Below, piece after piece: positions 7,872 to 62,717 of a DNA stretch of 64,000 bases. Source of the DNA: Octopus vulgaris (Eukaryota); contig OX597826.1 of the NCBI GenBank assembly GCA_951406725.2, positions 33,666,001-33,730,000 of the forward strand, written 5' to 3'. Made by a program: the position numbers and the translations under genes. Under the pieces are notes generated by a model. That model saw only the letters and a program-made list of their open reading frames with translations. It was not told the origin of the DNA and did not search any database. How positions within the stretch are numbered: position 1 is the stretch's first letter; each line of letters begins with the position of its first letter.

Positions 7872-8128
7872 TCAGCTTTCCATATGATACATATAGAGGT
7901 AGAGCGCGGTTCTCGATGAAAATTGCATTTTTAATTGTTATTTTACATTCTGCATTTCGTATGTCTTACTAACCTGTCACTGACCAGTGGTAGATAGATG
8001 CAGACAGTCAACCTTACGAGATAACTTAGCATTAGCCTGAGTTTGGCCCGTTCAATTTTGTAGTTGTTGTTTTTTAGTGCCAAACTAACCCTGATTGAGT
8101 AAATGAGTGAAAATATTCAAGAGATAAT

Positions 8129-8555
8129 AATATATCTCTGAACAAGGTATAAACAGCAGCTGCACGACAATGTGAAGTATATTTTCCACTTAAACGTGGC
8201 CAACCACTAAGGGTGGATGCTACTGTAGCTTGATGCTCCAGGAGAACATCTTCTCCAGCTGGCTATTGACACACTTTCTGTGCCCTATCAGTATTTGCAA
8301 AGGGAAGCCATTCTTCTCATCGTCGACCTGACGTGATACGCATGGACCCGGGTTTCTGAGTATTTACCCGTCGTCAGCGCACGACTATCACCGGTCTTCG
8401 ATGCGAAGGGGTCCCAATGCAAAACTATATATCCTTTTTCCAGTGACGAAAAGTCACTGATCTCGCAAATGTGTAAACAAGCAATAATAAATTTCTGAAC
8501 GAGATATAAACAGTAGCTGCACGACAATGTGAAGTATATTTGCCACTTATATGTG
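8129..8555 (-). mobile_element. Retrozyme-like insertion: 357-bp HHR monomer with 62-bp terminal redundancy and 15-bp TSD
   Basis: TSD tattcaagagataat at 8114-8128 and 8556-8570; direct repeats 8137-8198 and 8494-8555 (about 6 mismatches); internal HHR motif. Confidence 0.7.
8339..8383 (-). ncRNA. Type I hammerhead ribozyme motif
   Basis: cgtgcg CTGACGA cgggt-aaat-actca GAAA cccggg TC catgcg; intact core, palindromic stem III (ACCCGGGT), GUC triplet; stems partly decayed. Confidence 0.7.
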
Positions 8556-9956
8556 TATTCAAGAGATAATTACTTAGCATTTTCAGGGCTATGTAGGGAT
8601 AAATTAACCAATGTGTCCTTTCTTTAAGACATTAGGCTGTTATAAACATAACATGAACAATGATCGAACACAAAACGTTTATATGTCTGGCTCCTAGACA
8701 CAATATCGATTCTAACATATCACATCGTGTCCATCCATGTTGTAAGCTTTTGTGTTGCTAGAAATTCGTGCACGCAGTTATTTGCTCACTGTTGTTACTT
8801 ATCAACGAGCTTCGTTTTGCAATCAATAACTGTAGCATTCCGGAGGTCATATTTTGTCGCGAAATAGTCTGGTGCCACGCGAGTTTCATTTCAGCATGTT
8901 GAGATTTCATTCCTACAACCAACAGCGAATTGTTTTGCTGTAATAAAGCAATTACATAAATCATTATTGATTCATAATTCAAAGAAAATGTATTTTAGTA
9001 CTTTACAACTCTGATTTCTTCTGAACATCCTCTGGAAAATAATTCAAGTCAAAAGTCCTGTCCTGTAATGATTCTGTTACAGAGCAGAAATAAATGACAG
9101 GAAAGGAGATAATAGTGTTCTCCCATTCATTAGAGTATTTTGCTCTTCCTTCAAAATGACGTTAGGATATATTTTGTAGTACGGTGCGTTTCAAGACTGG
9201 TTGACTGATGCAGTCACTGGCGGTTCTCTGTTTTGCAGGAAGTTAAATATTAACCACGATTAATAGCACTCTGTTTACCTTTTACGATAGTGCTTTTCTT
9301 TGGTCTTTCTCGGATCTCTTTTTTGACATCGCTGATGTTGTGCTCAGCTATATTTGTTAAAATTCTCTGTGATGTGTGAACCATAGATTTACATTTATAG
9401 AATCGTGATTAAAAAAGTTTTTTTTAAAAATGTGACTAGAGAAATAGCTAGATATTTAACATCACTAAGAATTATAGCATTAATTTTGGAGTTGGTTACA
9501 AAAGATGTGTCAGTTCCTACGACTAGTGACGGTCGTATATTTAAGAATGTATCTATGTACATACGTATGTATGCATCTAGTATGTATATATGCATCAATC
9601 TATGTATGTCTGTATGTACATGTATGCATACATAAATGCATTCACTGCTATTTGTGAATATGCGAACATGATTTAATGTGTGCACATTTGTGGCCGTATA
9701 TCTACATTATGTGAGTGTATGTGTGTGAAACGTTTCTCTATGTCTCAATACGCTTGCAATTATGTAATGAGTGTACTTGTCCTTTTAGTGTACAGTCGTT
9801 TGCTTGCTCTCAATGTTCGTTGGTTTGTATATATATTATTAAATGTTTTGTAATTTAAATTGGGCGTGAAGTGAAACAATTGTAGGAAGTGTTAATTAAT
9901 TAATTAATTTATATCCATTGAATCCTTTCATTTTCAAACTTTTTCTATTATATAAT

Positions 9957-25283: not shown

Positions 25284-26374
25284 CTATCCGTTTTCTTTAG
25301 GGGACCAAAAACGTAACAGAAATTTAGTCACATGTGGGCATGATCCGAAAAGTTCTGTCCTTGTATTTAGACATGTGGTAGGGTCTAAGCTGCTTTTCCA
25401 GATAAGCCATCTCTCCATGTCGCATAAACCGCACCTTCCGCTGCCGTTAGTATAGGGCTTACATCTGGCCAAAATCTTCCATTGTATGTTATAATCGACA
25501 CCTTTATCTCTTAAAGACCAAATATGATTGGATAATTGTGTCGCTTTTCTTTGTTCCAGTGCCTAAAGCTCAAAGTGTGGTTATTGAACCTGGCCTTGAA
25601 ATTACCCTCTGTCAGGCCCACGTATTTCTTCGTCGAAACGGTGTCTTTAGTGGTTATAGAGTTTACGGTAGCCTCATATATGATGGTCTTGGACATGCAA
25701 GCTCCATTTAGCGGGCACAATTCTTTATTCCTGCATGAACAGCTGTTTTCTTCTTGTGTTTTTTGTATGTTATGATTGATTATGTTTTTAAAATTGGTAG
25801 TTGAACTAAAACTAATTTTTAAATTGTGTCTATTGAAGAGTTTCCTATAAGCATGGTTAACTGGAAAATGTCTATCTATCAGTGCTAGGAAATATTTACC
25901 TATATTGAAGGCCACCTCGGGTGAGTAAGGGGGCGTAAACCAGATGACCTTCCTATTTCTATTATTCCTTTTCTTTATTGTTGGGCTGGTGATAGGTGTA
26001 TATTTTATTTTTTCGCTAAAACCACTATCTTTTAAAGCTTTATTATAAACTGGGGCAACGCTATTGAAGATGTCCTCATTAGATGAGAGGCTAGAAATCC
26101 TCTTACTAATATTTTTAACTAAATTTTTGAATACTATAGGGGGATGGCATGAACCTACATTAATATAACTTAGTCTATCATTGGGCTTCCTATAAGGCTT
26201 ATAAATATTATTATTAAGATCTAAGGAAACGTCTAAGAAATTGACAACCGTCAGGTTAGTGTCTATAGTTATACTAAGTCCGAAGTGTTTCATTAACTGG
26301 ATAATATCCTTCCTAAAACGATCTTGTGCTGGTCCATTTGTATTAGCTGTTAAGGCGAGGGCATCATCTTTGTA
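25284..26374 (-). CDS. PLE reverse transcriptase (from YKDD) plus GIY-YIG endonuclease; one frameshift near 25546
   Basis: YKDDAL...VNFLDVSLDL...YKPYRKPN...SCHPP; linker CSCRNKELCPLNGAC (CxCx5C); IIY...YVG-LTE..FKARFNNH; one added base joins to KATQLSNHIW...CGLCDME...CLNTRTEL..SCPH. Confidence 0.88.
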
Positions 26375-26540
26375 GATTTTATATATTTTTATATATTTTT
26401 ATATATTTTTTATGTATTTTTATATAATTTTTATGACGAAAAATGCGAGCGATGTATAAGTACGCAGGCAAAGCAGAGTTATAACAGAGTAATTTCCCTT
26501 CATTTTTAACGGTATTTTTTCATAACGTTTTCAAATAGCC

Positions 26541-59741: not shown

Positions 59742-62717
59742 ACCACAGAGCTCACAATGGACCACCGACCATACCTCCCAAGAATCAAAATAAACAAAAT
59801 AACAACACCTATTATAAACAGCATAAACCTAGCCGTCACTGAACTGATAGCCACTGAATCAAAAAAAGTGATATCACTGAGCTAAATAACCTAATATACG
59901 CAGCAGCCACTGCAGCCACAAAAGAAGCTGGATACTCACCCAAACCCGCCCAAACAGGAGTACCACCACCCAAACAAACCCTGTGGATAAATAACATCCA
60001 AAGCAAAATAAAAAAAAATAGAAAAGACCTGTCGATTCTTAATGAAATCAGCAAAGAATCAACGCTACTGAGCAACAAAAAGAGAACAAAAATACTCCGC
60101 AAATATAACATCACAGAAATGGATTTGCCTGAAATAAAAGAAAAGCTGAAGCAAGATATCCTTGCCAAAGCACAAAGGATCCGCCGGTACAAGAAACGCC
60201 AACGCTTCTTTGAAGAAAACAAAAAGTTCAACTCCAACCCCAAAAAGTTCTACCAAGAACTGGGCAAAAATAAAATAGAAGTCACTGCAGCACCAACGGC
60301 AGAAGAATTGGAAGAATTCTGGGGAGAAATATGGTCGGCGAACGAACCACCAAAAAAAGGAGTATCAAAATAACAAACTCGGCATCTGAACAAATTTGGA
60401 CCCCCATAACAACTGAAGAGGTCACCCAGGCACTGCAAAGACTAAGCAACTGGAAGGCACCTGGGCATGACAAGATCCCCAACTTCTGGTTGAAATATCT
60501 AACAGGAATGCACAAAAAGCTGGCTGAAAACTTTAACAACGTACTAGCAGAGCCAGAGACAATGCCTGAATGGCTCACAAAGGGGAAAACCATCTTAATT
60601 CCCAAATCAAATGAAACAGAAAAACCAGAAAACTACAGACCAATAACCTGCCTCCCTACTATGTTCAAGGCATTTACTGCAGTGATATCACAAAGGCTGA
60701 ACAAGCACCTGGACGAAAACAAACTGTTCCCAGAAGAGCAGAAAGGATTCCGCAAAGGCTCATATGGCTGTAAAGATCAACTAATGATTAATAAAGCCAT
60801 AACTGAAGAAAGCCACAGAAAGAAGAAAGGCCTCAGTATGGCCTGGATTGACTACAAAAAGGCGTTTGATAGCATCCCCCACACATGGATCCTCGAAACA
60901 CTAGCCATTAACAAAGTAGCACCAACAATCATAACATTCATAGAGCACTCTATGAATAAATGGCAAACAGTCCTACACCTCCAAACAAAAGAGGGACTCA
61001 TGAAAACCAAAGACATCCCCATTAGAAGAGGAATATTCCAGGGAGATACGCTCTCTCCACTCCTTTTCTGCTTGGCACTGTCACCTCTATCTGATATGCT
61101 AAATAGAACTGGATGCGGATATAAATGTTACGGCAAAATGATCAGCCACCTTTTATATATGGATGACCTAAAACTATACGCTGCAAATGACAAACAGCTG
61201 GAAACACTATTAAAGACAGTTCATGGATTTACCAAAGAAATAGATATGAAATTTGGATTAGAAAAATGCGCCAAAGTAACCATGAAAAGAGGAAAACTAG
61301 TTAAGAGTAACAACATCACACTAGATGAAGCAAATGAAATAAAAGAATTAGACCAAAGCCAAACTTACAAATACTTAGGAATCCATGAACTAGATAAGAC
61401 ACAACACACACAAATGAAAGAGAAAATAAAAAAAGAATATTATAGACGAGTTAGATCAATACTAAACACAGAGCTCAATGCTAAAAACAAGATAATAGGT
61501 ATCAACACTTTAGCTGTCCCAGTTATAAGTTACAGCTACAATATCCTTAACTGGATACGAAATGAACTGACCAAAATAGACAGGAAAACAAGAAAAATAA
61601 TGACAGGATCTAGGATGCATCACCCAAAATCTGACATAGAAAGACTATATATACAACGTATAGAAGGTGGTAGAGGCCTTATACAGCTGGAAAACTACTA
61701 TAAAATAACCACCATAGGACTGCAAAAATATCTACTTCAGAAGGAAGGAAAACTGATCCAGATAGCAGCAAAACACGAGCAAAACAAAAAACTGTTCTCA
61801 GTATTTAAGGAAGCTGACAAATACAAACAAGAAATCATACCACCTAATAAACATGAAGAAGAAGAAGAAGAAGATGAAGAAACAACAAAAGCTATAAAAA
61901 AAATGAAATCCAAACTAAAAATAGAACAGCAACGAACCATGATAAAACGATGGCAAGAAAAGCCCCTTCATGGTAAATACTGGACTAAACTAAACGCAAA
62001 AGAAATAGACAAAGAAAAATCCCAGCAATGGTTGAGAAGCTCAGGACTCAAAGCAGAAACAGAGGGATTTTTAATTGCAGCACAAGACCAAAGCCTCCCC
62101 ACCAGAAATTACCAAAAACATGTAATGAAACGAAATATTACAAGTAACTGCAGAATATGTGCAGATGGACAAGAAACAATAAATCATATTATCTCTAGCT
62201 GCCCAGTCCTGGCTAAGAAGGAATATATTCACAGACATGACAGAGTTGGAACCTACATACATTGGAAGCTATGCCAACATTATGGAATAACAACAGAAAA
62301 AAGATGGTATAGGCACACACCAGAAAAGGTCACAGAAAACGAGAAAGCAACCATACTCTGGGATATGCCGATACACACAGATAGAGAAATTACGGCCAAC
62401 AGACCAGATATAGTTGTCAGAGACCATGAAGAAAAAAATGCTTTCTAATTGATGTATCAGTACCAGCAGATGACAACGTGTCTCTAAAAGAAATGGAGAA
62501 ACTCTCAAAATACAAAGACCTGGAAATAGAGGTAACTAGAATGTGGAATCTGAAAACAGAAACAATTCCTATCATAGTAGGTGCATTAGGCATGATAAAA
62601 AAATATTCAGACAAATACATAACAAAAACACCAGGACTTACAAACACATATAACATACAGAAAATTGCACTACTAGGCACTGCACACATCCTACGCAGAA
62701 CACTTTCCATACAATAA
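59742..62717 (+). CDS. RT/RLE polyprotein (~990 codons) with three frameshifts at A7 runs
   Basis: KAPGHD, YRPITCL, WIDYKKAFDS, GIFQGDTLSP, YMDDLK, CRICADGQETINHIISSC, RHD, NRPDIV/FLIDVSVP, EKLSKY, IIVGALG. Confidence 0.9.

Follow-up and report, generated by a model that had tools for sequence, protein, structure and literature searches.

A predicted hammerhead repeat of Octopus vulgaris bears the insertion footprint of Penelope-like elements

In the 64,000-nt stretch of Octopus vulgaris DNA analysed here, to which we refer as the window, about 1.2 copies of a 357-nt repeat with a predicted hammerhead ribozyme stand between two identical 15-mers. Which enzyme brought this repeat to its present place, and from what kind of RNA was it copied? 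Our answer, in which we have good though not complete confidence, is that a reverse transcriptase-endonuclease of the Penelope-like type likely inserted it from an RNA longer than one unit, and that this RNA was slightly likelier a circle than a tandem transcript.

The insert is about 427–430 nt long, and the coordinates of its parts are collected in Table 1. As the preliminary description of the locus had stated, its target site duplication (TSD) is a perfect 15-bp repeat; this 15-mer occurs exactly twice in the whole window, at the two positions given. The terminal direct repeats (8126–8198 and 8483–8555) are spaced by 357 nt, which bears out the earlier estimate of about 1.2 units; they had been described as 62 bp long and are indeed present at both ends, but their true length is 73 nt, with 89% identity. 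The longest ATG-initiated open reading frame (ORF) of the insert has 32 aa, the GC content of the unit is 45%, and none of the 16 open frames of at least 150 aa listed for the window overlaps the insertion. Elsewhere in the window, there are open frames at 60274–62448 on the plus strand (724 aa), within a strongly A-skewed stretch, and at 25511–26398 on the minus strand (295 aa). Next to the insertion but beyond its limits, the segment 8582–8643 is matched by contigs of several runs and is thus probably another repeat.

Table 1. Positions of the insertion and its predicted elements within the window. Unit positions (p) are counted in the sense of the ribozyme, i.e. on the minus strand of the window.
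Feature	Position	Strand	Remarks
TSD, RNA 3' side	8114..8128	.	last 3 bases shared with the element end (microhomology)
Long fixed 3' end (unit 71–77)	8122..8128	-	predicted reverse-transcription start 2; that of the window copy
Inserted element	8126..8555	-	one 357-nt unit + 73 nt; non-coding
Second pass over unit positions 1–73	8126..8198	-	contains both fixed 3' ends of the family
Short fixed 3' end (unit 27–31)	8168..8172	-	predicted reverse-transcription start 1
357-nt repeat unit	8199..8555	-	p = 8556 - window position
Predicted type I hammerhead	8333..8391	-	6-bp stem I and distal helix; 4-bp stem II; palindromic stem III
Predicted cleavage site	8344..8345	-	after GUC, unit 211/212; inferred from hammerhead rules
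Insertion site of ORF1-only LINE derivatives in other copies (unit 161–178)	8378..8395	-	empty in the window copy
Predicted transcription start	8399..8402	-	first four bases as in U2, 59 nt after the motif
Predicted proximal sequence element	8455..8461	-	7-base motif common to U2 snRNA gene promoters of the same genome
TSD, RNA 5' side	8556..8570	.	15-mer identical to 8114–8128

The insert is a single copy, and an old one, of a non-coding repeat that is abundant in the genome. Contigs assembled from the runs X18 and X19 cross both insertion junctions with 0–2 differences, and no empty-site junction is found among the contig matches listed. The shape of contig coverage over the insert is similar in the runs guessed to be RNA (5 of 8) and in larger unlabelled runs, and the depth of assembled contigs cannot rank the parts of the insert. 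The unit departs from the family's column majority at 17 of 357 bases (4.8% divergence), and the two terminal repeats differ at 8 of 73 sites without a single rare variant in common; the copy is therefore old and uninformative on the choice between circle and tandem transcript. Since the release of a monomer would take two ribozymes and this copy has one, it likely represents a dead end; given this single ribozyme, its divergence and a stem I mismatch (C.A at 8343, a position paired in most family copies), it is probably inert.

The ribozyme is predicted on the minus strand, which the preliminary description had left unstated. The type I motifs that it had named are all present: CUGACGA (8377–8371), GAAA (8356–8353), the palindrome (8353–8346) and GUC (8347–8345). 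Stem II is closed by a C.A mismatch, both in this family and in a sister family described below. Hammerhead models, which had been suggested as a check, found no match: an Rfam scan of the window returned nothing at gathering score, and one of 8000–8700 no hammerhead family at E<=10. The window unit folds better than any of 100 shuffles (z -3.69), and the minimum-energy fold of the monomer differs from the hammerhead fold; for an intact copy, the hammerhead reaches -11.2 kcal/mol versus -20.0 kcal/mol for the minimum-energy fold. Consequently, the ribozyme call rests on comparison. In an alignment of 19 hand-picked rows, 18 of them distinct, 92.6% of the cells in the hammerhead stems are paired and 4 of 19 pairs show changes on both sides, with none of 500 shuffles scoring as high; this covariation stems mostly from the split between two subfamilies. 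In the older of these, both sides have changed at one stem I pair and at the stem III palindrome. Such compensatory changes suggest that the ribozyme fold was kept, and together with the core motifs they support the predicted hammerhead identity.

The family is a newly found member of a type already known, the animal non-LTR retrozymes (Cervera and de la Pena 2020, PMC7229834; Li, Clavereau and Pollet, bioRxiv 10.64898/2026.07.22.740005). In the accessible parts of these reports, such retrozymes have a type I hammerhead in a non-coding unit of 150–450 nt with less than 50% GC and TSDs of more than 4 bp; they occur as dispersed monomers and some multimers in genomes that also hold Penelope-like elements, and the units of mussels measure 350–390 nt. 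The octopus family resembles them in its predicted type I core with three stems, and in unit size, GC content, TSD length, dispersal and the co-occurrence with Penelope-like elements. It differs in that its copies are mostly 5'-truncated, shorter than a unit and often inverted rather than arrayed.

With the insert as query, the 2.8-Gb genome yielded 4147 candidate matches, of which 40 were scored, and four exact 34-mer probes from the unit gave 31, 381, 82 and 96 matches, the 381 being those of the probe near the 3' end. Across the copies, the 3' ends concentrate at two fixed positions separated by about 45 nt; the 5' ends are variable. Among 90 loci chosen by a motif ending at unit 27 (with five removed for overlap with another locus), 53 arms end at unit 25–31, 46 at 66–84 and 12 elsewhere, which places 99 of 111 at the two sites; in a second set, the first 50 of 96 exact matches to an internal motif, the two sites account for 42 of 50 (26 at 21–33 and 16 at 71–82). 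After four of the 90 had been dropped, 86 insertions were kept, 46 of which are inverted head to head: 35 combine a long with a short end, one has two short ends, none has two long ends, and ten involve another end. Non-repetitive TSDs of 10–16 nt flank 22 of the 86 (mismatched-flank controls, 7/600), and low-complexity duplications a further 14. The flanks are 83.5% AT, and (TA)3 lies within 16 nt of 48 of 100 ends, compared to 7% of random 16-mers. Most copies are shorter than one unit, with a median arm length of 173 nt and 7 of 100 arms exceeding 357 nt. In a single copy (L020:2063), the 3' end coincides with the predicted cleavage site instead of a fixed site; no clustering of such ends was observed.

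These counts change the earlier picture in part. Copies had been expected to start at permuted positions, and the terminal redundancy had been read as a sign of passing around a circle; since the 5' end alone varies, the redundancy instead amounts to a fixed start and a variable stop. The expectation that further copies carry TSDs and the proposed target-primed insertion of a retrozyme-type unit are both supported.

What kind of enzyme leaves such ends? Penelope-like elements have been described as partial tandems that have an inverted truncated arm and, on one end, a tail of 30–40 bp (PMC8557442), and in the anole element Poseidon, this tail was traced to two internal reverse-transcription starts (PMC11167929). 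As far as the accessible text of these sources goes, the footprint of the octopus copies, with its two ends, a tail on one end only, inverted 5'-truncated arms and (TA)n targets, is that of Penelope-like elements with an endonuclease. The palindromic stem III is shared as well, being a feature of the hammerheads in the terminal repeats (pLTRs) of these elements (PMC4209133). By contrast, the octopus unit has no ORF, its tail measures about 45 nt, and it has no sequence match to the autonomous families examined. In the literature covered, chiefly open-access main texts and not supplements, we found no report of Penelope-type ends mapped on retrozymes; hammerheads and retrozymes go unmentioned in the accessible text of PMC13282606. 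Judging from the copy ends, insertion by a Penelope-type enzyme is likely.

Long TSDs and 5' truncation with inversions are also seen with L1-type elements. The repeat might accordingly be a SINE-like element moved by an ordinary LINE, or else a TRIM with true terminal repeats. Yet the 3' end lacks poly(A), there is no B-box match, and the two fixed internal 3' ends are used in complementary pairs on opposite arms. Moreover, the length of the terminal redundancy differs from copy to copy, unlike that of a fixed LTR, and the TSDs measure 10–16 bp, where 4–6 bp would be expected of a TRIM or LTR element. We regard this origin as very improbable.

Another reading sees no independent retrozyme in the copies but the remaining stumps of an autonomous Penelope-like element's terminal repeat. 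The identical insertion footprint would fit, as would two features known from Penelope hammerheads, namely the base added after A9 and the palindrome in stem III (PMC4209133, as far as accessible). However, long copies run 5' into the 357-nt unit again and not into an ORF, a LINE derivative was the only shared non-unit sequence found upstream of the 5' ends, and none of 329 loci has a reverse transcriptase (RT) or GIY-YIG ORF in line with the unit. For the copies examined, this reading is largely refuted, and we consider it improbable overall.

We return to a retrozyme likely served by a Penelope-type enzyme and to the question of which one. Elements with GIY-YIG and RT domains are abundant in the genome (6136 GIY-YIG candidates, 150 scored). 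No nucleotide similarity of the unit to Penelope parts was found in 45 GIY-YIG loci (30 of 148 matches and 15 longer stretches), and a partner search by a profile of the two hammerhead families was negative. A 17-nt stretch shared with one Penelope family was attributed to chance (E=0.31), and two loci in which the repeat lies near Penelope pieces (L249 and L096) proved not to be joined, the parts being separated by (TA)n or placed tail to tail. At one place among the 329 loci screened, some of them duplicates, a Penelope arm with a short end stands head to head with a retrozyme arm with a long end, with (TA)n on both outer sides (L019:585–1913). The Penelope family concerned has two ends about 50 nt apart; its 3' region shows no similarity to the unit (p=0.83), and the unit is absent from the other 24 loci of this family. 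It is possible that this junction is a chimeric insertion that names the partner family (L441–L465). Among other Penelope elements, one (L187:1321–4483) shows the same layout of inverted arms as the octopus repeat: its arms of 766 nt are 100% identical, and just one of them bears a tail; it also has a hammerhead-like motif of its own. A young family (L181–L188) has many intact 781-aa RT plus GIY-YIG frames and, in several copies, an upstream frame of 300–480 aa; a pattern search found no ordinary hammerhead in this family. The fragment L091:2290–2950, which precedes a composite copy on its upstream side, combines a distinct GIY-YIG-like frame with a hammerhead-like motif of its own.

The sister family has a 351-nt unit and 3183 candidates (loci L237–L255, and L256:1501–2417 with 2.6 tandem units). 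It is distantly homologous to the window family, downstream of the ribozyme (score 61, shuffle maximum 34) and has two 3' ends of its own. A probable third related hammerhead family is represented by L169:14–273, which ends before (TA)n (profile match, E 3.9e-14).

As for the template, the arms that reach the predicted cleavage site do not stop there: none of 44 ends at unit 206–218, and in a second set, 2 of 49 end near the site. This rules out a linear self-cleaved monomer and leaves an uncut multimer or a circle, and it supports the earlier proposal of a template that runs through the cleavage site.

A further consideration is where transcription might begin. Of 15 U2 loci examined, out of 48 matches, 13 have the 7-base motif at -57 to -61, although the 15 fall into three promoter types and are thus not independent. 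In the unit, the motif occurs once, at 95, and the first four U2 bases once, at 154; 0.44% of 5000 shuffles match this arrangement. The distance from the motif to the ribozyme core is 84 nt in the window family and 85 nt in the sister family. We therefore predict, from similarity to the U2 upstream regions, an snRNA-type promoter inside the unit, whose transcripts would start shortly before the ribozyme. Around unit 154, 5' ends show a weak excess (7/36, p=0.08; 6/26, p=0.048; baseline from another set), and 29 of 49 arms pass upstream of unit 146. If the promoter upstream of the start is real, copying it needs a multimer or a circle. An snRNA-type promoter has been reported for newt satellite 2 (Coats et al. 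1994, as cited in PMC2220036), likewise a hammerhead repeat with the promoter in the unit; the octopus family, for which the promoter is a prediction, is dispersed and not satellite-like. In two U2 copies (L381 and L388), the motif is absent, and the sequence in front of U2 is an A-rich end like the tail of the LINE derivatives described below, which suggests insertion at the U2 start.

On a rival view, element and Penelope-type enzyme are the same but the template is linear: a few multi-unit loci would supply read-through transcripts that are used uncleaved, with no circle and with the ribozyme idle in insertion; we give this scenario, and with it a linear multimer as template, a substantial chance, though one below even. 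Multi-unit loci exist: L048, L277, L279 and L346 span two ribozyme positions in tandem, and a strict pattern for two ribozymes is matched by 1 of 309 loci. In three motif-picked sets, the farthest 5' ends (-175, -184 and -200) overshoot the predicted start by no more than about one unit, as a linear transcript would have it. Two copies, L277 and L279, exceed this limit and reach farther 5' than a transcript of two units that begins at the predicted start would allow. In vitro, uncleaved linear RNA is the main substrate of the anole Penelope protein, and mutants of the ribozyme have no effect on insertion of the anole element (PMC11167929, accessible parts). Against a linear source speaks that no long array was found among the best 40 of 4133 candidates, that each round would be expected to lose the first promoter and shorten the source, and that the compensatory changes between the subfamilies suggest a ribozyme kept in shape.

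The stopping points of the arms were equally compared. In an upstream-motif set of 82 loci, 38 of 47 short- or long-ended arms stop in unit 1–95 (baseline 0.46, p 1e-6). A circle specifically predicts an arm's own start as preferred stop, which was not observed for the interval 58–88 (short 9/28 vs long 5/16, p=1) or for 13–43 (7/15 vs 5/10, p=1). Short- and long-ended arms stop alike, which is compatible with linear read-through; no circle-specific barrier is seen, and the test does not discriminate. A barrier at the own start that 9 of 9 arms had suggested was discarded, as that set had left out L092, which passes the point in question. Rare variants common to the tandem passes of one insertion were found in 5 of 7 copies tested, as expected if a single molecule was read twice; a tandem source with homogeneous units would fit equally. 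In a separate comparison, part of the excess of shared variants comes from later local duplications. The tandem sister locus L256 was rejected as evidence for a circle, its units 1 and 2 differing at 9 of 351 sites and sharing 14 variants, which points to later local duplication. On balance, we lean slightly towards a circle as the template.

The repeat is also a target itself. In other copies, ORF1-only LINE derivatives of at least three lineages, 1.2–2.5 kb long and with a zinc-knuckle motif (Pfam match below cut-off), are inserted just 5' of the ribozyme with short duplications (L221, L227, L233, L235, L366, L367, L370, L371, L372 and L373). Both halves of the target are kept in 6 of 10 loci that were selected for a unit match broken at the site, and additionally in L221, L227, L233 and L235; L227 holds two inserts in series. 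Of 30 loci with a LINE-derivative 3' tail, 11 continue into the window family, a number favoured by the query, and 7 of the 19 others into the sister family at the equivalent place. In several composite copies, the upstream half is missing and the ends lie at the two fixed sites, which suggests that the inserts are carried by the Penelope machinery. No ORF2 was seen in these inserts, so that we infer their Tx1-type clade. Tx1-clade LINEs such as Keno, which targets U2 genes, and Tx1-Mar are target-specific (PMC4494074, as accessible), and the inserts resemble them in hitting the same site of a multicopy target time and again, with short duplications and in serial arrangement; they differ in being ORF1-only and in having a hammerhead repeat as target. 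In the literature covered, again mainly open-access main texts and not supplements, we found no report of LINEs targeting hammerhead repeats.

The course of events that we favour would thus be as follows. Driven by an snRNA-type promoter within the unit, transcription would begin shortly before the ribozyme; where a locus holds two ribozymes, a unit-length RNA would be released, and its ligation would yield a circle that also holds the promoter. A Penelope-type protein would nick AT-rich DNA at points about 10–16 bp apart. Internal priming would take place at either of two sites (174 or 219 nt beyond the cleavage site), in many cases from both strands, which would produce the inverted arms, and synthesis would end at a variable point. 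The window copy would have started at the long site and run for 430 nt, 73 nt beyond one unit. One may go further and imagine a parasite system of three levels, which we offer as a speculative and rather doubtful extension. Here, the external snRNA-type promoter of the unit would survive only via the circle made by the ribozyme, and a Penelope-type dimer would copy from the two fixed sites, one RNA per DNA strand, whereby the two RNAs could differ, as in the possibly chimeric L019. ORF1-only LINE derivatives of several lineages would insert just past the promoter, spare the ribozyme and both starts, and be carried along.

In the accessible parts of the two retrozyme reports (PMC7229834; bioRxiv 10.64898/2026.07.22.740005), mobilisation by Penelope-like elements is proposed from co-occurrence and homology, and the entry of animal retrozymes into new loci is likewise proposed but not demonstrated. 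The window copy itself is an ordinary decayed member of its family, and the mechanistic value lies in the family as a whole. It offers two mapped, predicted priming sites, a candidate partner family (L019, L441–L465) and a predicted promoter, so that the hypotheses of a Penelope partner and of a circular template may be tested in the existing in vitro system of the anole Penelope element.
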